Origin: a virus
Taxonomy: Duplodnaviria; Heunggongvirae; Uroviricota; Caudoviricetes
Strand: one strand, 5' to 3'
IMG/VR virus record: IMGVR_UViG_2703718818_000011
DNA length: 11,293 nucleotides
Below, piece after piece: positions 1 through 9,782 of this stretch. The notes under the pieces are model-generated. The model searched no databases. It saw only the letters and a program-made list of their open reading frames with translations, and was not told where the DNA came from. The first letter of the stretch is position 1, and each line of letters opens with the position of its first letter. Made by a program: the position numbers and the translations under genes.

Positions 1-653
1 GTGTTGGTGCGCACCGGCACTATTTGCGGTCCCGCTAATACTATGGGTATGCGCCCCGGTGTTATTCGTGGATTTGGTTCCGTAATCAAACGACGATGTG
101 GTTTTCGTCCCCAAATCCGTACTGGATGCGCTGGCGCTGTGGGTGTGCGATTTAATGCCGTCCTGTTCCTGAGACAATACGGCCCGACCACTGGCAGGTT
201 TGCCCTTAATCGTCCAGCCACGCATATCAGGGATCACGCCTGACGGATAAGCGGCTGCAAGTTTCGGGTAAGCAGATTTGTCAAAAGTCTGCCCCTGCAT
301 CAGGGCATAACCAGACGGAACGGTATCTGATGGCCACGGGATTGGTGCGCCGACTGGGTAGCTTTCTGGTGGAAGATTTTTCGAGGTATAAACTTCTGCC
401 CAGCCTTCCTCAAAACCATAACCGTCTCTTGAAGAACGGTAGAACAGACCACCATTTCTGTAATGCGCCTTCATCTGCAGGGTCCGGCAACTTCCGACTC
501 CGGTATAGAAGTTAACCAGAATATAGCTGTCGCCAGAGCGGGTGACATTGTAAGCGCCTGATTCGGCATTCCAGGGAACGCCACCATCCGCATCGGCATA
601 TGTATCCGTTGCCCTTCTGGCAAAAGCAGCCACATGCGCGGCGGTTAAAGTAA

Positions 654-849
654 TATCTTTGGAACCATCAAATGGAACACCGGATATTTTTCTTGCAGTC
701 TGGAGTTTTGTAGCAGTTGCAGCATTACCAGTGGTGTTCTGATTACCCGTAGTGTTTACACCTGGAAGGTTAATATTTGCAGAACCGTCGAAAACAACTC
801 CACCGATAGATCTTGCCGTCTGCAATTTCGTGGCTGTACTTGCATTACC
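654..849 (-). repeat. Imperfect tandem duplication inside stf, two ~75-bp copies about 118 bp apart, encoding a repeated ~25-aa fibre motif (..[21 protein letters not shown])
   Basis: Copy at ~654-729 (…ttttgtagcagttgcagcattacc) and copy at ~772-849 (…tttcgtggctgtacttgcattacc) are visibly similar on the plus strand; both translate on the minus strand to near-identical peptide motifs. Confidence 0.55.
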
Positions 850-1539
850 ATTCAATGAACCAGTTAATCCACCTGTAACAGACAACGGACCTGAAACTGT
901 TCCTCCGGTTGTTGGCAGTGCTCCAATATCTGATGGTGTAGGTTTCTGATGTGAGCTATACATCGTATAAACAACACCATAGGTAACGCTGGAAGGCTTA
1001 CTCGCTGAATATGTTGGCGAGGTATAAACAGAAACTGACGCATTTGCAGTACAATCCCAATGGATATTTACACTCGTCGCATAATTGCCAATCTCAACGT
1101 AAATATCATATGTATCGCCGGATGTGTTGATCCAGGCGAAATTCGTTAATCCGACGGCTGTACGCTTCCACAAAGCCCCGGTAATTCCTTTGGGGTTTCC
1201 ATTGCCTGCTCGTAGAACCAGTTCTGAAATGCCTGCCTGATGTGGGGAACCGACGTTGTAACCAGCGCCACCAATCAATGCGATGTAAACGATGGAACTC
1301 GCTTGTGGCATGGTAACCGTAGCCAGTTTGAACCACCCAGCCCCGCCAGAGAAAGACATCGTTACTGAATTTAAAGTACCAATATCTTTCGGCGTTAATG
1401 TTATATCCGCAGTCAGTGCTTTTCCGTTAACTTTTCGGTTAGATGGCACCCTGCTATTCGCATTGTCATTGGCTGCTTTAACTGCTTTTGGCGTTGCGGC
1501 CAGCGATTCACTGGTGCTATCAACAGCACTGCTAAGTTT

Positions 1540-2480
1540 CACAACACCTTTAGTTGTAAGGCTTGCGTCTTCCATCGCAACTGCACCGGCAATCTCTTCA
1601 GCACGATCAGCAGCAGCTTCCGCACGGGTCGCAGCGGATTCAGCAGTAGTTTTGCTCTGAGATGCCGCCGTCGCACTGCCAGCTGCCTCTGTCGCCTTCG
1701 TGGATGCTGTCGTGGCGCTGCCTTTCGCTGCTGATGCCTGTCTGCTCGCCTCATCTTTTGAAGCAGACGCAGATGATGCCGATGACGCCGCCGAACTGGC
1801 GGACGATGCAGCTGCCATTTTTGAGGATTCTGCACTGGTTTCCGAGGCTTTCGCGTTCGTTTCGGATGTCTTCGCTGCGGATGCAGACCTCGCTGCTGCG
1901 CTGGCCTGTTCAGCGGCTTCGCCAGCCTTCGTTGTGGCTGTTGAAGCAGACGATGCGGCGCTTTCTGCCGATTTTCCGGCGGCGGTGGCACTGGCTGAGG
2001 CCTGCCCGGCACTTGTTGACGCGGCACTGGCAGACGACGCAGCCGCTGTTTTTGAGCCTGCCGCAGCCGAGGCGCTCTGTCCCGCTGCCGTTTCAGAAGA
2101 CCTGGCGTTTGTCTCAGACGTCTTTGCCGCCTTCGCGGAATTGCCTGCCGCCGTTGCCGAGGAAGCGGCACTACTGGCGCTTGATGATGCGTTCGTTTCT
2201 GATGATTTCGCTGCCTCTTTTGAGGCCGCCGCATCCCGGGCTGAGGTGGCTGCTTCTGACGCCTTCGTGGTCGCGGCGGATGCAGAAGTGGCTGCTGATT
2301 GTTGTGACGCTGCCGCATTCGTTTCTGACGTTTTCGCCGCACCGGCACTGGTAGCTGCCGCGCTTTTTGAGGACTCTGCAGCAGCAGCACTTTTTGCTGC
2401 TTCACGGGCCTTTGTCGATGCCGTTCCTGCGCTGGAAGACGCTGACTGAGCCGACGACGCGGCCTGTCCGGCTGACGTGC
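1540..2480 (-). repeat. Low-complexity Ala/Ser/Thr-rich repeat region of the tail fibre shaft, with a 9-aa motif AAK(T/S)SETNA recurring four times
   Basis: The 26-nt units gcgttcgtttcggatgtcttcgctgc (~1853), gcgtttgtctcagacgtctttgccgc (~2105), gcgttcgtttctgatgatttcgctgc (~2189) and gcattcgtttctgacgttttcgccgc (~2315) are all reverse complements of AAK(T/S)SETNA codons. This strong compositional bias produces long spurious ORFs in several frames. Confidence 0.6.
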
Positions 2481-3372
2481 TGGCGGCACGTGCTGAGCCT
2501 GCAGCATCGGTTATTACCACTTCCCGGATCGCTATACGCTATTCCGTTAAAGATAATGGGCGGAATAATGATTTGACGGTCAAAGTTATGATCATCGCTG
2601 ATGGTGACTGTAACCGTCCCGTTTGGTGTTTCCGTATTACCCCACGTACCAGCCTGTTTCGGGAATGATTTGGATACAGCTTTAACGAAGTCACCTCTGA
2701 CCTGAGTCGCCTCCAGCATGCCCTTAATCGTACAGTTTTCATTTACCGTGACATTGTTGAGCGTCCCGGCGTTCGCATTCACACTGCCACTGATATCCGC
2801 ATTTTTAGCGGTCAGCTTTCCGTCCGGTGTCAGGGAAAATGCCGGTGGATTTCCACCGCTGGTAATGGTGGGGGCCGTCAGGCGTTTCAGGAACACGTCG
2901 TTCATGAATATCTGATCGCCCTGACCAACAAACATCGGTTTTGTGTTGCCATTCGCAGGATTAACCATCGCAATCCTGTCCGCCGCCAGCAGCACCTGAC
3001 TCTGCATGCCGTCAGGGGTGTTCTCAATATCCACGATGGCCTCTTTTTCCGGTACATGCTGCACGGCGGTGATGGCATACGTGCCGTCGTCGTTCTCACG
3101 GATACTCACGCAGCGGAACAGGCGCTGGCGCAACGTCGGCAGCTTCAGCCCCCATACGCTGTATTCAGCAACGCCGTCAGGAACACGGCTCACTTTCACC
3201 TTCACGCCGTCGGTGACGGACTGAACCTCCACGCTGACCGGACTCCCCTGCCCGTCAACCAGGCTTATCAGCGTGGTGCCGGAAGATGGCAGCGTGATTT
3301 CACGGTCGAGCGTCAGCGTCCGGGTCTGGCTGTTTACCGCCAGCACGCGCCCGCCGGTGCGGATACCCAAGC
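2402..3372 (-). pseudogene. J: Internal/C-proximal fragment of host-specificity (central tail fibre) protein J, with no native start and reading out of frame into stf
   Basis: The ORF translation [113 protein letters not shown] ... [63 protein letters not shown] is near-identical to two blocks of the second half of lambda J as remembered. The 'start' at 3370 is a TTG inside the J frame; the ORF ends ...[15 protein letters not shown]...KGP in the wrong frame of the stf Ala-rich region. Confidence 0.8.
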
Positions 3373-3588
3373 TGGAGTGGCGAACGTTTTACCCTTGCTG
3401 ATGAGGTATTCACTGATTTCGCTGTACCACATGTGGCTGAGTGCATTCTGGGAAAGACTGCGTCTCTCGCGCCACGGTTTAAGCACCATGCGAAAGCATT
3501 TGCCGTCCTCCAGATAAGGCTGGATCTGCCGACCGATAGCGGTGAAGTTACCGCGATGCAATTTGATACCATCTTGTGGGAGGTTCAC
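3363..3588 (-). pseudogene. ninB: N-terminal fragment (~75 codons) of a NinB/YbcN-family protein, truncated at a deletion junction with J'
   Basis: Translation [75 protein letters not shown] carries the RSL-x-QN motif remembered from lambda NinB (..ERNRSLDQNRKLWACLGDVS..). The start is GTG at 3588. After ..TPAWV the frame reads a few junk codons (SAPAGACWR) and stops, while J homology begins in another frame at the same position. Confidence 0.5.
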
Positions 3589-3782
3589 GCTTCACCTCCG
3601 CAGAGATCAAACGCTGGATGCAAAATATCGCAGGTGCATTTCTGCATCTGTGAATGGAGAAGAGAGGTTGGATTGTATGTGCGCATAAACGTCCCCGTTT
3701 AGCGCAGAAGTCACCGGAGTTGTTCAGGCCCCAATGGCATGATTATGGCTGGTTGATTATTGGAAATCAAATGTGCTGAAAA

Positions 3783-4292
3783 TTAGTCTGCCAAGTCTTC
3801 CTCAGTCGCAACTGGGTAATTCCAAATATCAAAAAAAGCTATAGCCTCCTGCCATTTGCTCCATAAGTTATCAAGTACTTGTGTAGGTTCCGTACTTTTA
3901 AAAACAGAATCAGCCGCATCACCGTTATGAACTTCCTCGTACAGTTCCATTATTAGCAGATTAACAAAGTACTGTTTCAACATTAATGCCTGATTACCTT
4001 CTTTCTGCTGGCTATCCTGCTTGATGATCTCCATCGCCCGTACTAGGCACCTGATGATATCCGCTGCATCATTAACGCTCCATTCAGATCCGCGCTTATC
4101 TTTAGCTGATGAATTGGCTCTCTCAGCGCAAGCCTTTAAAGACTCATAAAGGTAAACTCTATTTTGTAGCTGCAGCGCTTTTTTTGACGTGTACCAACTT
4201 GCAAGCGCCGACCCCGCTGCGGCTAATGTGCCAAACGCAGAAATACCTGCTGCTATTGCACTTAAGTCGGCACTGTCAAAGTTCCACATCAT
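3783..4292 (-). CDS. Hypothetical protein, 169 aa, with a predicted single N-terminal transmembrane helix followed by a soluble, charged, helical-looking domain; function unknown
   Basis: Complete ORF with ATG start and an AAGGTG Shine-Dalgarno about 7 nt upstream. Residues ~10-33 (LSAIAAGISAFGTLAAAGSALASWY) are hydrophobic. The gene is AT-rich relative to the phage backbone, has its own upstream region after a terminator, and does not match any protein I recognise. Confidence 0.55.
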   Translation of the reverse strand: MMWNFDSADLSAIAAGISAFGTLAAAGSALASWYTSKKALQLQNRVYLYESLKACAERANSSAKDKRGSEWSVNDAADIIRCLVRAMEIIKQDSQQKEGNQALMLKQYFVNLLIMELYEEVHNGDAADSVFKSTEPTQVLDNLWSKWQEAIAFFDIWNYPVATEEDLAD

Positions 4293-4321
4293 CGTTACAC
4301 CTTATATAAATACCCCTCAGT

Positions 4322-4350
4322 AATATCCAATAAGGTATGTGCACAATCAA
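4322..4350 (-). promoter_or_regulatory. Candidate sigma70-type promoter for the 169-aa gene (minus-strand -35 TTGATT, 17-nt spacer, -10 GATATT)
   Basis: Minus-strand sequence reads TTGATTgtgcacataccttattgGATATTactgaggggtatttatatAAGGTGtaacgATG. Hexamer match only; not validated. Confidence 0.25.
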
Positions 4351-4468
4351 TATAATTTTATCCGTATCGGCACATAGCGATTTGAACGCTACTGGTAATG
4401 GTATATTTTAGATTATATCGTCCAGTTTACAGCACCCGTATTTTATGAAATGGACTCGCATATTACCC

Positions 4469-4507
4469 AAAAAATGCCAGCACTTCCGTCATCGTAGAAT
4501 GCTGGCA
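4469..4507 (-). terminator. Rho-independent terminator on the minus strand downstream of the 99-aa ORF (end of the ybcK-side transcript)
   Basis: Inverted repeat tgccagca (4475-4482) / tgctggca (4500-4507) with a 17-nt loop, followed on the minus strand by a run of six T (plus-strand A-run 4469-4474). Confidence 0.5.
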
Positions 4508-4550
4508 GTATTTCTAACTAGTGACTTTATTGGAACAGATTCTGACGGAA

Positions 4551-4850
4551 TTATGGTAACACTCGACTCCACTTATCATCCAGCCACGGCTGGAATTTTA
4601 CATGTGCCGTTTCTCTGGCGAGGATTGCTCGCGCTCTGTTGAGTATCTGGGGATATTCTTGCTCGATAGAAGTAAAGCGGCCGGCTTCGCGGTGCTCCGC
4701 AACCTGAAGTAGTGGAGTAACGTTCTGGCAGGCAGTTAACATCACATCACCTGCTCGCCATAACCAAGCACGTGCACAAAGTTTGTTATCAGTGAATTGT
4801 TTTGTGATTGGGTATTGTTGAACTGCTAGAACGAGAACGCCAGCATCCAT
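4551..4850 (-). CDS. Hypothetical protein, 99 aa, unknown function; possibly co-transcribed with ybcK
   Basis: Complete ATG-initiated ORF 111 bp downstream of ybcK on the same strand, followed by the terminator at 4469-4507. GC content is closer to the host/phage backbone than to ybcK. No recognisable motif and only a weak ribosome-binding site, so it may be a gene fragment. Confidence 0.4.
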   Translation of the reverse strand: MDAGVLVLAVQQYPITKQFTDNKLCARAWLWRAGDVMLTACQNVTPLLQVAEHREAGRFTSIEQEYPQILNRARAILARETAHVKFQPWLDDKWSRVLP

Positions 4851-4961
4851 TGGCAGTCCCTATAGTAAAACCATAGCTCAGGACGCTTCGTTCAGGATAG
4901 ATAATTTTATTGTACTTACCTAACTTTCTTACTATAGCACGGTTGAAAAAGTGATTATTAC

Positions 4962-6488
4962 TCAAAAATAAACCTCACCATCAACCATATATTTGAGAGT
5001 ACTTATCGCCTGCTGGGCGGATATTGTTTTCATTAAAGGATAGTGTTTAAAAACAATGCCATTCATAAAATAGATATCACAGGTTTTATTATCTGTATTG
5101 ATTATGATTTTTTCGAATGTTTTATAGGCAAGTGTACGACATAGCTCTCGCCCATTTTTACTGGTTAAGTCAATAGCATGAAAATCACCAAGTGAACTCA
5201 CCGCTTTACTCTTCAAAGTTTTTAATGATACAGAAGCCCTTCGTAATTCCTTATCTAATACTCTGATTTTTTCTGCTATAGCGGTAACTTCAGGCGCAAC
5301 AGATAATGCAGCAATTAAATTATTAATTTTCATCTGGAGCTCAATAATTTTCAACTCTAAAGTTTCATTAGCATCTTTCTTGTTTTCAACTGGTTGGATT
5401 TTACTACAATTAAAAAGCAACTCATTAATGATATTATAATCAACCAAATCTCTCTTTATTGATGGCCTGTCACATCGATGCAGTCTTCTCATCGGACAAA
5501 CATAATAGCCATGCAAACTTCCAGATACCGCATGAACAATCATGGTATTACCACAAGCCTCGCACTTCATAACTGTTCGAAGTAGATTTATCAACATAGG
5601 ATTTTTGCTACTATTGCTAATACCAAAAGGTGCCAACCGAATTTCCTGCACAGCGTAAAACAAATCATCTGATATGACTCTGGGATAATAGCCAGCGATT
5701 TCACTTATTCCTTTACCTCTTGCACGATATGAAGGTACGCATATACCTATCAGAGCTTTATTCGCTAATAATTTTTCAATTACAGAAGGTCCCCATGCAC
5801 TTTCTTTTCCTGAGAAATTCTTTACAGCATGATCATTTAAATACTTGGCTATTGCATTCAATGAGCGCCTTTCCATCCTGAGTTTAAAAATTAGCTCAAT
5901 AGTTTTCACCCTGTCGGGGTCTGGAACAAAAGCCGTTCTTTTGTCATCCAATGAGAGCCATCTCGGACAAGACGCCGTCATAATCGTGCCTGACTCCAGT
6001 GCATCCTGCCGTTTTTTCTTCCATGATAATTTAACCCGACTTGACTTTATCTCGCTTTCTTCATTTGCCCTTTGTGCTATAAGTATGGCTTTTATTAATG
6101 AATATGGCTCATTCAATGAGTCAATATTATAGACTGTATTATCGCAAAGAGTTATAACATCAATACCGTGATTCAAAATCAATTTCAGACGCTCAATCGC
6201 CTCACCGACTTTTTCTCTTGAAAGTCTGTCCAGACTTTCAACTAACAATGTAGTCCCTGGCAATATATAACCATGTTCTATAGCATCTAAAAATTCCGAA
6301 AAAGCTCCTGATTGTGCATGCTTTCCATTGAATGCGCTTAACCCCAAATCTTCATACGTTACGGTATCAAGGTAATAATCACTATTTACCTTTAGCCATT
6401 CAGTAATAAGCCTTCTCTGGCGGTTTAATGAATCACCAGACATCTGACTTGGTGATGAAAATCGCATATATGCTATGGCTTTTTTCAT
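4962..6488 (-). CDS. ybcK: Large serine recombinase (resolvase/invertase-type catalytic domain, recombinase domain, Cys-rich zinc-ribbon-like segment), YbcK-like
   Basis: 508-aa ORF. The N-terminus AIAYMRFSSPSQ carries the serine-recombinase catalytic serine motif, with ..LVESLDRLSR.. following. A Cys cluster (CEACGNTMIVH...YYVCPMRRLHRCD) lies in the C-terminal half. Length and position next to emrE match K-12 DLP12 YbcK as remembered. The gene is strongly AT-rich, with an AT-rich 255-bp upstream region. Confidence 0.85.
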   Translation of the reverse strand: MKKAIAYMRFSSPSQMSGDSLNRQRRLITEWLKVNSDYYLDTVTYEDLGLSAFNGKHAQSGAFSEFLDAIEHGYILPGTTLLVESLDRLSREKVGEAIERLKLILNHGIDVITLCDNTVYNIDSLNEPYSLIKAILIAQRANEESEIKSSRVKLSWKKKRQDALESGTIMTASCPRWLSLDDKRTAFVPDPDRVKTIELIFKLRMERRSLNAIAKYLNDHAVKNFSGKESAWGPSVIEKLLANKALIGICVPSYRARGKGISEIAGYYPRVISDDLFYAVQEIRLAPFGISNSSKNPMLINLLRTVMKCEACGNTMIVHAVSGSLHGYYVCPMRRLHRCDRPSIKRDLVDYNIINELLFNCSKIQPVENKKDANETLELKIIELQMKINNLIAALSVAPEVTAIAEKIRVLDKELRRASVSLKTLKSKAVSSLGDFHAIDLTSKNGRELCRTLAYKTFEKIIINTDNKTCDIYFMNGIVFKHYPLMKTISAQQAISTLKYMVDGEVYF

Positions 6489-6743
6489 GGTGACACCTGC
6501 TAAAGTATGCTTTTATAAACCTTAGTGGTGAGATATGATTTTTGTTTAATTTTTATTTAAAAAGACAATTAAGGTCACATTATCTTGAATATACAACAAT
6601 AATCGTATTGCAATTTTCTTACACCATAATCTTGAAAGCACAAAAGAATGAATAAAAACTAAAGACATTAACAAAAAGCATAAAACGAGGCCCATATAAA
6701 TATACGAGCCTCCATATTTTAGTCGTTTAAAAACAAATTATTT

Positions 6744-7076
6744 TTAATGTGGTGTGCTTCGTGACAATAAATTAATAACCAACACACCGGCACAAATCAA
6801 CATCATGCCTATAATGGCTGGCAGGTCCAACCGTTGGCCGAAAAATCCCCATGATAGTAAGCTAATCAGGACAATACCGACTCCTGACCAGATAGCATAA
6901 GCAATCCCTGTAGGAATATAAGCCAGCGTCTGAGCTAATAACCAGAATGATGCACAATAACAAATAATTGTACCAACAGATGGCCATAACCGTGTAAAAC
7001 CTTCTGAAAACTTCATTAAGGTTGTACCAATGACCTCTGCAAGTATTGCACCACCAAGATAAATATAAGGATTCAT
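6744..7076 (-). CDS. emrE: Small multidrug resistance (SMR) family efflux transporter EmrE, 110 aa
   Basis: Translation MNPYIYLGGAILAEVIGTTLMKFSEGFTRLWPSVGTIICYCASFWLLAQTLAYIPTGIAYAIWSGVGIVLISLLSWGFFGQRLDLPAIIGMMLICAGVLVINLLSRSTPH matches E. coli EmrE essentially residue for residue as remembered. The true start is the ATG at 7076 with an AGGAAAG ribosome-binding site; the 128-aa track ORF starts at an upstream in-frame ATG. Confidence 0.95.
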   Translation of the reverse strand: MNPYIYLGGAILAEVIGTTLMKFSEGFTRLWPSVGTIICYCASFWLLAQTLAYIPTGIAYAIWSGVGIVLISLLSWGFFGQRLDLPAIIGMMLICAGVLVINLLSRSTPH

Positions 7077-7091
7077 AGCATATTCTTTCCT

Positions 7092-7126
7092 GTTCAAACT
7101 GGAGAGAATTGTACTACAGTTTGAAC
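7092..7126. promoter_or_regulatory. Perfect 10-bp inverted repeat (gttcaaactg / cagtttgaac, 15-nt spacer) between ren and emrE, directly upstream of the emrE ribosome-binding site
   Basis: Positions 7092-7101 and 7117-7126 are exact reverse complements. No T-run follows on the minus strand, so it is more likely an operator, RNA structure or module-boundary hairpin than a canonical terminator. Confidence 0.5.
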
Positions 7127-7143
7127 TCAACTCACCTGTTTCA

Positions 7144-7446
7144 TCATTGTGTACCCATTGATGTTCTTTTATATACCCTCAATACCCGTTTCATCGCGGC
7201 ACTCTGGCGACACTCCTTAAAAATCAAATTCGTGCTCACCTTTCCTTCCCATTCTTCTCTGGTAGCGAACCGATAATACACCGTTCGCCAGACCTTACCA
7301 TCAACGACTAGGATTCCTGCCCGCGCCATTTTAGCCGCAGCCTGATTTATGCTGGTTACCGTTGCGCCTGTTACCGCGGCAACGTCCTGCGCACAGAATT
7401 TCTTATGAGTCCCCAGGTAATGAATAATTGACTCTTTGCCCGTCAT
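7144..7446 (-). CDS. ren: Ren-like protein (lambda ren homologue), 100 aa
   Basis: Translation MTGKESIIHYLGTHKKFCAQDVAAVTGATVTSINQAAAKMARAGILVVDGKVWRTVYYRFATREEWEGKVSTNLIFKECRQSAAMKRVL... is very similar to lambda Ren as remembered. Its ATG overlaps the stop of P (ATGA), as in lambda. Confidence 0.85.
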   Translation of the reverse strand: MTGKESIIHYLGTHKKFCAQDVAAVTGATVTSINQAAAKMARAGILVVDGKVWRTVYYRFATREEWEGKVSTNLIFKECRQSAAMKRVLRVYKRTSMGTQ

Positions 7447-8144
7447 ACCCTTGCTCCTTTCAGCCCAAACTTAGCTTTGATTTCTGCGATCTTCGCCAGA
7501 GCCTGTGCACGATTTAGAGGTCTACCGCCCATGACAGGAAGTTGTTTTACTGGTTCAGGTATAGCCTCACCACGGTTAATTCGTGCGGTCATACAGGACA
7601 GTTCATCGGCAGCCTTGCGCCGTAATTCCGCGTCAGTCAACGCATTGGCCCGCATGTTCTGATACAGGTTGGTAACCAGCCAGTAGTGCGCGTTTGATTT
7701 CCACGGATAAGACTCTGCATCCGGATACAGCCCGCGCTTCCGGCAATACTCGTAAACCATATCAACCAGCTCGCTGGCGTTTGGCAGCCCGGCGGTAACG
7801 GATGCTTCTTCCCGGCACCAGGCGACAAACTGCCCGGGTGATGGCAGGAATGGTCGATTCTGCCGACGGGCTACGCGCATTCCAGCGTTAACCTGTTCCA
7901 TTGTGGTGATCCCGTTTTCCCGAAAAGCCAGCACCCACTGGCGGCGGATTTCGTTCAGTTCATTCTGGTCACGGTTAGCCAGGCTCGCCGGGAAAGTTGC
8001 CAGTAACTGGCTGAACACACCGTTGATGATCTGCGCTACCTGCTGTACCTGTGGCTTTTCGTCGTACTGTTCCGGCATGTTGTTGGCGATCCGACGCATC
8101 TGCTCACGGTCAAAGTTAACCATCTGTGCGGCGATGTTTTTCAT
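7443..8144 (-). CDS. P: Lambda-type replication protein P (DnaB helicase loader), full length, 233 aa
   Basis: Translation MKNIAAQMVNFDREQMRRIANNMPEQYDEKPQVQQVAQIINGVFSQLLATFPASLANRDQNELNEIRRQWVLAFRENGITTMEQVNAGMRVARRQNRPFLPSPGQFVAWCREEASVTAGLP... is near-identical to lambda P as remembered, with the same length. Confidence 0.9.
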   Translation of the reverse strand: MKNIAAQMVNFDREQMRRIANNMPEQYDEKPQVQQVAQIINGVFSQLLATFPASLANRDQNELNEIRRQWVLAFRENGITTMEQVNAGMRVARRQNRPFLPSPGQFVAWCREEASVTAGLPNASELVDMVYEYCRKRGLYPDAESYPWKSNAHYWLVTNLYQNMRANALTDAELRRKAADELSCMTARINRGEAIPEPVKQLPVMGGRPLNRAQALAKIAEIKAKFGLKGARV

Positions 8145-8395
8145 AGATCCACCCCGTAAATCCAGTCAGTGTTTGTCAGGTCGAGTTTTGGTTTGCCGAC
8201 TGTCACGCCAGCCTGTTGCTTGTTCCGGTTGATTTCGAGCTGGGTCCACTTGTCGCGGAGTTTGGCCGGACTCAGCACGTTACCGGACCAGAAGTTGTCC
8301 TGGCAGGCCCAGCGGAACAGTACACACATGTCGCGGTGGTTACGTCCATCACGTTCACGCATCAGACGGATATCGTTAGGCGCGATCACTTTCGT
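8141..8395 (-). pseudogene. O: C-terminal fragment (~83 codons) of replication initiator O; the N-terminal origin-binding part and the ori iterons are absent
   Basis: Translation ...IAPNDIRLMRERDGRNHRDMCVLFRWACQDNFWSGNVLSPAKLRDKWTQLEINRNKQQAGVTVGKPKLDLTNTDWIYGVDL matches the P-interacting C-terminus of lambda O as remembered, overlapping the P start. The frame is closed by an in-frame TAG just upstream (~8396-8398). Confidence 0.65.
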
Positions 8396-8503: not shown

Positions 8504-9568
8504 ATGAGTCAGGTTGGTAATCATTCATTCGAATTTCCGGCATCGCAAGGTGTACAGGGTGGTACTGTTACACTCTTCCTTACCATACCAGGAAGATCGC
8601 TGGCTCGTTTCCTCGCTTCAGATAATTACGGCCATACACTGGAACGCTCTCAGCGAGAAATTAATCCAAATCGAGTACGAAAATTTTTAAATTATCTCAC
8701 TAACGCAGACTCAAGAAATGAGCCTTTTATCATTCCCCCTCTCGTAGGTAACTGTGATTCGAATATAGAATTTGTACCGTTTGGCAACACAAATGTTGGT
8801 ATAGCCAGAATTCCCCTCGACGCCGAAATAAAACTTTTTGATGGTCAACATCGTGCAGCTGGCATTGAGATATTTTGCCGAAGTTCCCCATCAACGCTCA
8901 TGGTTCCCATGATGCTTACAATGAATCTGCCGCTAAAAACCCGGCAGCAGTTCTTTTCGGACATAAATAACAACGTTTCTAAGCCATCAGCGACCATCAA
9001 TATGGCGTATAACGGCCGGGATGATATTGCTCAGGGAATGATATCCTTCCTGACCCAACATACTGTATTTGCCGATATAACCGATTTTGAACACAACGTA
9101 GTGCCATTAAAAAGTAATATGTGGGTGAGTTTCAAGGCACTCACTGATGCAACGTCAAAGTTCGCTAGGAACGGCAATCAACAACTTGAAATGGGATATA
9201 TAGAATCTGTCTGGGAGGCATGGATTACACTAACTCAGATTGACTCAATCCGACATGGTGTACACCACGCTACGTACAAGCGCGATTATATTCAGTTCCA
9301 TGGAGTAATGATTAACGCTTTCGGTTTTGCGGTTCAACAGATGATGGTTAATCATTCCATCGCAGAAATAACTTCTATGATCGAAAAACTATGTGCAACT
9401 ACCAGCTCTGCAGAAAGAGAGGATTTTTTTCTGATGGATAACTGGGCGGGGATCTGCACGAAAGCCAGCCAGGAAAAACTATCTGTTATTGCCAATGTGG
9501 CAGCGCAGAAAGCAGCAGCAAACAGACTGATACAAGCTTTTACCAAAGGAAGTCTGGAAACAACTTAA
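8504..9568 (+). CDS. DGQHR-motif protein (DndB-like family), 354 aa; orphan, with no dnd/dpd partner genes in the window
   Basis: Complete ORF with a strong Shine-Dalgarno (AGGAGG at 8494-8499) and ATG at 8504. The protein contains the diagnostic motif ..EIKLFDGQHRAAGIE.. at about residues 108-121, and its size is in the DndB range. It is AT-rich relative to the flanking P/O' and xis/int, and is followed by a hairpin plus T-run. Confidence 0.75.
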   Translation: MSQVGNHSFEFPASQGVQGGTVTLFLTIPGRSLARFLASDNYGHTLERSQREINPNRVRKFLNYLTNADSRNEPFIIPPLVGNCDSNIEFVPFGNTNVGIARIPLDAEIKLFDGQHRAAGIEIFCRSSPSTLMVPMMLTMNLPLKTRQQFFSDINNNVSKPSATINMAYNGRDDIAQGMISFLTQHTVFADITDFEHNVVPLKSNMWVSFKALTDATSKFARNGNQQLEMGYIESVWEAWITLTQIDSIRHGVHHATYKRDYIQFHGVMINAFGFAVQQMMVNHSIAEITSMIEKLCATTSSAEREDFFLMDNWAGICTKASQEKLSVIANVAAQKAAANRLIQAFTKGSLETT

Positions 9569-9669: not shown

Positions 9670-9782
9670 ATTAATCGGACTTGTGCAAGTTGCCAGGAGG
9701 AGATCGAACTTAAGAACAAACAATGGGGACTGTGATGGCTTCAAAGCAGCAAATTTCAACATCGTCCAACTGAGGTGTAAAA

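Follow-up and report, generated by a model that had tools for sequence, protein, structure and literature searches.

DLP12, the Escherichia coli K-12 prophage at argU, has decayed through internal deletions by which truncated genes became fused (exoD'::'peaD and aaaD'::'tfaD), and e14, the K-12 prophage at icd, is likewise decayed and contains fused pseudogenes (oweE'::'aaaE and beeE'::'jayE). The stretch of DNA considered here, an 11,293-nucleotide (nt) window of IMG/VR virus record IMGVR_UViG_2703718818_000011, belongs to a defective lambdoid prophage of ~17.6 kb that is inserted in icd, i.e. at the e14 / phage 21 site. At window positions 3364-3367 (hereafter junction 1) the 5' half of ybcN is joined to an internal point of the tail gene J, and this join was very probably left by an illegitimate, i.e. 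homology-independent, deletion.

DLP12 and the window have in common the module of P, ren, emrE, ylcJ, ybcK, ylcH and ybcN, at 96-99% DNA identity, and the two fusion junctions of DLP12 have TA microhomologies with a GGTA partner, as is the case in the window. Unlike the element studied here, DLP12 is at argU rather than icd, has an intact ybcN, keeps the genes from ninE through nohD, has its tail-side junction between terminase and tfa, and carries ybcL-ybcM where the window has a P22AR-C open reading frame (ORF) and a 169-aa ORF. e14 has the icd site in common with the element, including a duplicated icd 3' end followed by iraM, but has baseplate genes, pinE and mcrA, and neither the emrE-ybcK-ybcN module nor J. 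The nin5 deletion of lambda, present in DE3, resembles junction 1 in being a spontaneous short-homology deletion that starts in the ren/nin region; by contrast with junction 1, it removes 2.8 kb of the nin region only, is at a 10-nt repeat (CACGAACCTG) with no TA or GGTA, was selected in the laboratory, and left the phage viable. (The b-region deletion of DE3 is an engineered EcoRI join.) The full-length relative used for comparison is the Ec1119 prophage at thrW (NZ_CP126600.1), in which the gene order from ybcN to J is undeleted. It is 99.3% identical to the window over the 5-kb O-P-ren-emrE-ybcK-ybcN arm, but has another integrase and the thrW att site, and its J and stf are 94% and 89% identical to those of the window; it is thus a relative and not the parent.

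The junction between ybcN and J

The ORF list and translation give a minus-strand ORF with a GTG start (3588..3334, 84 aa), the N-terminus of which is MNLPQDGIKLHRGNF, and which reads MNLPQ...KTFATPAWV followed by SAPAGACWR and a stop; a second minus-strand ORF (3370..2402, 322 codons), in another frame, matches J. Over residues 1-75, the short ORF and the intact, 151-aa YbcN are 100% identical, which rules out a naturally short YbcN. At the DNA level, the ybcN homology on the minus strand ends at 3364 (BLAST against the intact ybcN locus of strain 88-3493, 99.86% over 3,437 nt) and the J homology begins at 3367 (BLAST against the intact J of phage phiSTEC1575-Stx2k, 100% over 340 nt), near-perfect homology (99.9-100%) thus switching abruptly at one position on both sides. 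The three-way base-by-base alignment at the crossover (marked by a slash) has ...CAGCTTGGGTA / AAAGATG in the ybcN parent (longer, ...CAGCTTGGGTA / AAAGATGC), ...CTATGCCGGTA / TCCGCAC in the J parent (longer, ...GACTATGCCGGTA / TCCGCACC) and ...CAGCTTGGGTATCCGCAC in the window (longer, ...CAGCTTGGGTATCCGCACC); the ybcN site is ..CAGCTTGGGTAAAAG.. and the J site ..TATGCCGGTATCCGC... Because the homologies of both parents overlap in GGTA (minus strand, 3367-3364), the breakpoint lies inside these 4 nt.

The sequence-only reading had placed a join within 3355-3380, at a short shared sequence, with a NinB-like frame running to KTFATPAWV and then to junk and a stop, and with the J interior beginning in another frame from the same few nucleotides. 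Pairwise alignment with intact ybcN and J bears this out and resolves the breakpoint to the nucleotide, with a 4-nt microhomology (GGTA), the second frame corresponding to lambda J from residue 488 onward and the J homology starting at 3367, close to the ~3370 proposed. The N-terminal part is the 5' half of a 151-aa gene and not a complete small gene of another family.

Both parental sequences are conserved. The ybcN-side sequence is the same in 5/5 independent intact references, and GCCGGTAT on the J side is found in both of the closest J genes. A microhomology of at least 4 nt occurs in ~1.8% of random position pairs, as computed on a related prophage. In the PGAP annotation of both ML35 and NCTC9100, two partial pseudogenes overlap by 4 nt at the same place. 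Examination of the junction and of the element annotation revealed no insertion sequence (IS), att core or long repeat at junction 1. Both genes are truncated there, YbcN retaining 75 of its 151 residues plus nine junk codons, and J lacking residues 1-487. The features concerned, and those that adjoin them, are as follows.

3364-3367, minus strand: junction 1, GGTA; assigned from the three-way alignments, the conservation of the parents and the PGAP pseudogenes overlapping by 4 nt
3364-3588, minus strand: ybcN', codons 1-75 of 151, with GTG at 3588; assigned from identity with YbcN, NCBIfam NF007281 and the 99.86% DNA match to 88-3493
3334-3363, minus strand: out-of-frame tail of ybcN' (SAPAGACWR and a stop), which is J DNA read in the wrong frame; assigned from the ORF list, translation and alignment
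3028-3367, minus strand: 'J-a, codons 488-600 of a 1165-codon J (lambda J 488-604); 100% over 340 nt to the phiSTEC1575-Stx2k J
3028-3029, minus strand: junction 2, an in-frame 933-nt deletion within J with TA microhomology; parents GTGGATA / ACGG and GCCGGTA / TTGAG
2509-3029, minus strand: 'J-b, ~codons 911-1084, comprising the tail-tip and the start of the receptor-binding domain, with the last ~80 codons gone; 97.7% to the LD93-1 J, with Pfam matches
2508-2509, minus strand: junction 3, joining J-b out of frame to stf codon 146; microhomology of 0-3 nt (AC/ACC)
1-2511, minus strand: 'stf, a side tail fibre gene without its N-terminal 145 codons, with a Collar domain (Pfam); aligns with StfR from residue 146
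3585-8389, minus strand: intact upstream arm, comprising 'O (8141-8389), P, ren, emrE, ylcJ-like, ybcK (4962-6488), the P22AR-C ORF, the 169-aa ORF and a ylcH-like ORF; assigned from 99.3% identity over 5,016 nt to the Ec1119 prophage, the NCTC9100 annotation and Pfam matches

The description of the left-hand ORF as NinB-like holds in so far as it is the 5' half of a gene at the ninB position, but intact YbcN scores below the Pfam threshold for NinB (PF05772; 21.0 bits, E = 3e-4, gathering threshold 23.8 bits). The window fragment scores 12.4 bits with this family, compared with 183 bits for lambda NinB, and BLASTP of the fragment against lambda NinB gives essentially no similarity, RSLSQN/RSLDQN being the sole match. 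With NF007281, the YbcN subfamily model, the fragment scores 134 bits over positions 1-76 of 151 (cut-off 164 bits), as befits half a gene, and intact YbcN 279 bits over positions 1-151. Judged by these comparisons, YbcN is at best a distant NinB relative, and the term is positional.

The J homology beyond junction 1 was correctly recognized as J interior; the fragment is, however, itself broken downstream, with two more junctions within 860 nt, such that the remnant consists of two non-adjacent J pieces. The long ORF is 91% identical at the aa level to lambda J 488-610 and, after a gap, corresponds to lambda J ~880 to 1040. It matches Phage_Tail_Tip (PF09327, 64.8 bits, cut-off 22) and Ig_GpJ_C (PF12421, 48.2 bits, cut-off 26.2); with the NCBIfam model for lambda_TipJ (NF049904) it scores 491 bits in two stretches, compared with a full-length cut-off of 1950, and so is not a full-length J, 'J-b matching positions 910-1100 of 1163 of this model. 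Junction 2, which removes ~J codons 601-911, is present in 17/17 carriers of junction 1 and occurs alone in none of the complete E. coli genomes. A naturally short J can be rejected, since the strains whose sequences span the internal J gap (PE164, E105 and FY26) carry other degraded J remnants and not intact short genes. At junction 3 the 3' end of J, lom and the first 145 codons of stf, i.e. its N-terminal domain, are lost; its position has a margin of 1-3 nt, since the best available stf reference is ~92% identical. The J piece lacks its own start, and the 'stf frame has no stop and is open through the window start. Both remnants at junction 1 are dead, YbcN' because it stops after nine out-of-frame codons, and the J piece because it is startless, has 933 nt missing internally and continues out of frame into stf.

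Two further long ORFs overlie the Ala/Ser-rich repeats of stf, one antisense (1700-2449, plus strand), which is annotated by PGAP as a hypothetical protein in ML35 and NCTC9100, and one in the wrong frame (1539-2507, minus strand). They are Ala/Asp-rich and Pro/Arg/Gln-rich, respectively, and the antisense one is probably spurious.

The element, the extent of the loss and rival histories

In NCTC9100 the order of the element from its left end is icd, int, xis, DUF4222, TraR/DksA, DndB-like (DGQHR), DUF1317, exo', 'O, P, ren and emrE, followed by ylcJ-like, ybcK, P22AR-C, the 169-aa ORF, ylcH-like, ybcN', 'J', 'stf, tfa, McrB-like, McrC, icd' and iraM. There is a 217-nt duplication of the icd 3' end, and attL and attR are at the element ends, more than 8 kb from junction 1. 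From 8378 to 1 the window and NCTC9100 are 100% identical, and the window has two further small deletions. Of 5,426 complete E. coli genomes, 17 have inherited junction 1, all with full coverage; with an 801-nt junction query, 16 of the 17 carriers are 100% identical and one is 98.6% identical, and all 17 have junctions 1, 2 and 3 together.

The DndB-like gene (DGQHR, PF14072; 354 aa, 8504-9568, plus strand) adjoins int/xis, with no other dnd genes within the window, and the full records have a McrB-like AAA ATPase and McrC at the far end of the element. The remnant therefore keeps cargo of a defence type. Also among the cargo of the nin region, between emrE and ybcN, is ybcK (4962-6488, minus strand), the product of which is a large serine recombinase of 508 aa (Pfam domains Resolvase, Recombinase and Zn_ribbon_recom); the literature searched held nothing relevant on YbcK activity.

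Comparison with Ec1119 gives the extent of the loss. Window 8379-3364 corresponds to Ec1119 24,598-29,613 and window 3368-3028 to Ec1119 52,350-52,690, the two being collinear and co-oriented. The ybcN point (29,613) and the J point (~52,350) are on the same strand, ~22.7 kb apart, and because the Ec1119 map holds both in the same order and on the same strand as the window, ~22.7 kb can be taken as lost at junction 1. After ybcN, Ec1119 has ninE, ybcO, rusA, ylcG, quuD, a porin gene, lysis genes, iss, nohD, terminase, head and tail genes, J, lom, stfR and tfa. The discarded segment accordingly covers the 3' half of ybcN, ninE, ybcO, rusA, Q, the porin moron, lysis, cos, terminase and all head genes, and the tail genes up to and including the first 487 J codons. 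The proposal that a single deletion removed the 3' part of ninB, the rest of the nin region, Q, lysis, head and tail genes and the 5' part of J is thus upheld by the Ec1119 map as regards content, a single step being no more than the economical reading of it.

The most economical reading is that one event made junction 1. DNA breakage and rejoining, or a template switch, would have joined the base after ybcN codon 75 to the first base of J codon 488, the join falling inside the GGTA common to ybcN and J; the ~22.7 kb between the two points would have been thrown away, and the resulting element would have the order icd / int-xis-...-'O-P-ren-emrE-ybcK-...-ybcN'::'J'::'J'::'stf-tfa-mcrBC-like / icd'. 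Textbook routes to joins at microhomologies are replication slippage and end joining. The sister junctions suggest a sequence-preferring activity at GGTA/TA. Whereas the breakpoint, the microhomology, the collinearity with Ec1119 and the inheritance in 17 genomes are shown, the single event and its molecular route are inferred.

Several observations weigh against so simple a history. The left arm is 99.3% identical to Ec1119, the J of which is only 94% identical, whereas the right arm is 100% identical to the J of the Stx2k phage, the nin region of which has no match; no single known phage with at least 99% identity to both arms was found. An unsampled mosaic may therefore have been the parent, or two co-resident prophages may have been joined. 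The three junctions within 860 nt could have arisen in one complex event with multiple template switches, and no intermediate structure is present in the 5,426 complete genomes.

A staged origin, in which junction 1 is the last of several steps, or a single complex template-switch event that produced junctions 1-3, the present join in either case being secondary, is possible but the less likely course. The clustering of the junctions (3364-3367, 3028-3029 and 2508-2509) is consistent with it, as are the secondary deletions in sister strains that begin at, or a few nt from, older junctions, and the finding that the J-side entry points of junctions 1 and 2 both follow the same 9-mer (TGCCGGTAT). 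However, all 17 carriers have the three junctions, with no intermediate in the collection, and parsimony prefers one event per junction. That two co-resident prophages were joined, a DLP12-type early region to the tail region of another phage, is improbable. The P-ren-emrE-ybcK-ybcN arm is indeed 99.9% identical to the DLP12-type prophage at argU in 88-3493 and 99.3% to the one at thrW in Ec1119, the J piece is 100% identical to the Stx2k phage J and 94% to that of Ec1119, and in ML35 the locus is joined to a neighbouring e14-like prophage; but the order and orientation of the segments fit one lambdoid map that runs from int to tfa, with intact attL and attR on either side, and mosaic divergence between arms is normal in lambdoid phages.

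An Int/att-mediated deletion is rejected on the position of attL and attR, and an IS-mediated adjacent deletion because ybcN runs straight into J and no IS is annotated within the NCTC9100 element. An artefact of assembly or sequencing, or a chance overlap of ORFs, has a negligible likelihood, given that 16 complete genomes, each assembled independently, have the identical junction sequence (a seventeenth being 98.6% identical) and that its flanks are 99.9-100% identical to intact genes. The reading retained is thus that of an illegitimate deletion between ybcN and J in a prophage at icd.

Decay in sister strains and the GGTA/TA regularity

The same element is present at several stages of decay in different strains, which have nested further deletions; this series documents ongoing decay of the element. 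In STECUZB006, P' runs into the final 129 nt of stf; two additional deletions are seen in Z1323HEC0011, one from junction 1 and one from 3 nt off junction 3; Z217-2 has an in-frame 519-nt deletion in stf; and in ML35 the left part of the element has been exchanged for an e14-like prophage, joined inside P. The ML35 join (ymfQ' of the e14-like prophage to 'P; locus L001, 7752-7755) has a GTA overlap at the P site CAGGTA, and the STECUZB006 join (P' to the stf 3' end; locus L009, 24126-24129) has a GGTA overlap at the same P site. Both the window and RM10410 lack the exo remnant, the window junction being at 8377/8378 with a TA overlap. The right end of this loss is at the same nucleotide of O as the older exo'::'O junction of NCTC9100 (locus L004, 17797-17798), which has a TA overlap, and its left end (GCGCCTA/) is the site of a junction in K-12 DLP12 (locus L015, 2573-2574). 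In RM10410, int carries IS insertions and the TraR gene is still present; by comparison with NCTC9100 and RM10410, the window at 9672-9675 has lost 207 nt of the TraR/DksA-family gene region, with a 2-nt filler (TT), a loss found in the window alone and in no complete genome of the collection.

A different kind of arrangement is seen in FY26 (locus L007, NZ_CP101741.1; 2468 and 4605), which has three tandem J remnants, each following the same first 19 nt of lom. The lom left end (...GTTTGTGCAG/) is joined to two different J interior points, with 1-nt overlaps, and the arrangement is of a duplication type with a reused left breakpoint.

The comparison of junction sequences covers 22 prophage deletion junctions from the icd element family (relatives L004, L005, L009, L013 and L001), DLP12 of K-12 (L015) and BL21 (L021), B2C, PE164 (L006) and FY26, with the K-12 DLP12 junctions being placed against Ec1119. 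One junction has a 2-nt filler and one is placed only to 1-3 nt; the set is small, was gathered opportunistically and comes partly from one element family. Left out of the count were the K-12 e14 fusions oweE'::'aaaE and beeE'::'jayE, for which one parent only is available (with GGT or GGTA at the boundary), and the emrE-ybcL-ybcM remnant of SFAD3, which at 85-92% identity is too divergent for junction placement.

TA is inside the microhomology at 16 of the 22 junctions, whereas it is so in 4.1% of random pairs with a microhomology of at least 2 nt. Three of the four overlaps of exactly 4 nt are GGTA or its complement TACC (junction 1, P to stf in STECUZB006, and terminase to J in BL21), the fourth, in B2C, being TGGA, and a GGTA partner is present at most of the TA junctions. 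Compared with TA sites in general, there is an excess of G at each of the three positions 5' of TA (p ~0.001-0.003 each). Of three junctions fetched after the idea had been formed, two fit the TA pattern. Breakpoints are also reused, as listed below.

TTGGGTA/ in ybcN: twice, in junction 1 and Z1323HEC0011
CAGGTA/ in P: STECUZB006 and ML35
GTCGGTA/ near the stf 3' end: STECUZB006 and Z1323HEC0011
GGGCTA/ in O: NCTC9100 type and the window
GCGCCTA/ in DUF1317: K-12 DLP12 and the window
CCAGGGT(A) in the O-like gene of e14: K-12, ML35 and PE164

Candidate activities and significance

In the sequence-only reading, the overlap at junction 1 was taken to suggest microhomology-mediated deletion. The 4-nt overlap is consistent with this, but GGTA recurs at many other junctions, and the mechanism may involve more than chance microhomology. 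The junction may, with some reserve, instead have been made by sequence-preferring breakage and rejoining at reusable (G)GTA/TA sites, and not at random microhomology, the deletion product being the same in both cases. Candidates for it would be a serine recombinase that crosses over at a 2-bp TA, for instance the YbcK encoded by the element (in cis or in trans), or some other enzyme that nicks DNA or transfers strands. A serine recombinase requires just a shared 2-bp core, and at junction 1 the TA within the shared GGTA is identical in both partners.

The excess of TA and of GGTA/TACC over chance, the enrichment of G 5' of TA, the recurrence of breakpoints in independent strains or elements and the fit of two of the three later junctions all favour such an activity. 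If sites were preferred and reusable, breakage at identical nucleotides of ybcN, O, P and stf in independent lineages would be accounted for. YbcK carries three Pfam domains of a large serine recombinase, and there is a weak dyad signal centred on TA, with C 4 nt 5' of T at 11 of 21 sites and G 4 nt 3' of A at 12 of 21. Set against these points, no extended site of 30-40 bp of the serine-integrase kind is visible, nothing being apparent beyond the weak signals flanking TA; the PE164 events have no ybcK nearby, such that YbcK would need to act in trans; TA is absent from 6 of the 22 junctions; the laboratory nin5 deletion of lambda is at a plain repeat; the small and opportunistic nature of the set also tells against the proposal; and no published enzyme specificity was found that matches GGTA. 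Nor did the literature searched contain anything relevant on a GGTA or TA deletion signature.

The GGTA/TA regularity is explained by no known enzyme motif tested. The cleavage consensus for gyrase, YRT/GNYNNY, does not fit, the bases 5' of GGTA at the main sites being GCC, GTC, ACA and TTG, and Rpn nucleases are reported to be without sequence specificity. E. coli topoisomerase I is reported to cleave T/A four nt after an obligatory C, i.e. with C at -4 (PMC9352719). A hand count over the aligned sites gives C at -4 on either strand in 11 of 21, which is about chance; at junction 1 the J partner (CGGT/A) conforms to the topoisomerase I rule, and the ybcN partner has neither C at -4 on the top strand nor G at +3, to which such a C would correspond if it were on the other strand. 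It is conceivable, though doubtful at present, that natural deletions in E. coli lambdoid prophages are made preferentially at (G)GTA/TA sites, which remain usable after the event, with YbcK, a prophage-borne serine recombinase that is nearly ubiquitous, being one testable candidate for the activity.

Taken alone, junction 1 is of a familiar type, in that it marks a deletion in a cryptic prophage that has lost its late genes and kept emrE, ybcK and its DndB-like and McrBC-like cargo; it is ordinary, and fits ordinary domestication. The added value is in the nested series, with stages of decay in different strains, nucleotide-resolved breakpoints that are reused, and a strong preference for GGTA/TA. 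This signature needs a systematic survey before it deserves any weight. Were the pattern to hold in such a survey, it would suggest that prophages in E. coli erode by a specific enzymatic route, and would provide a sequence rule that predicts where prophages break.

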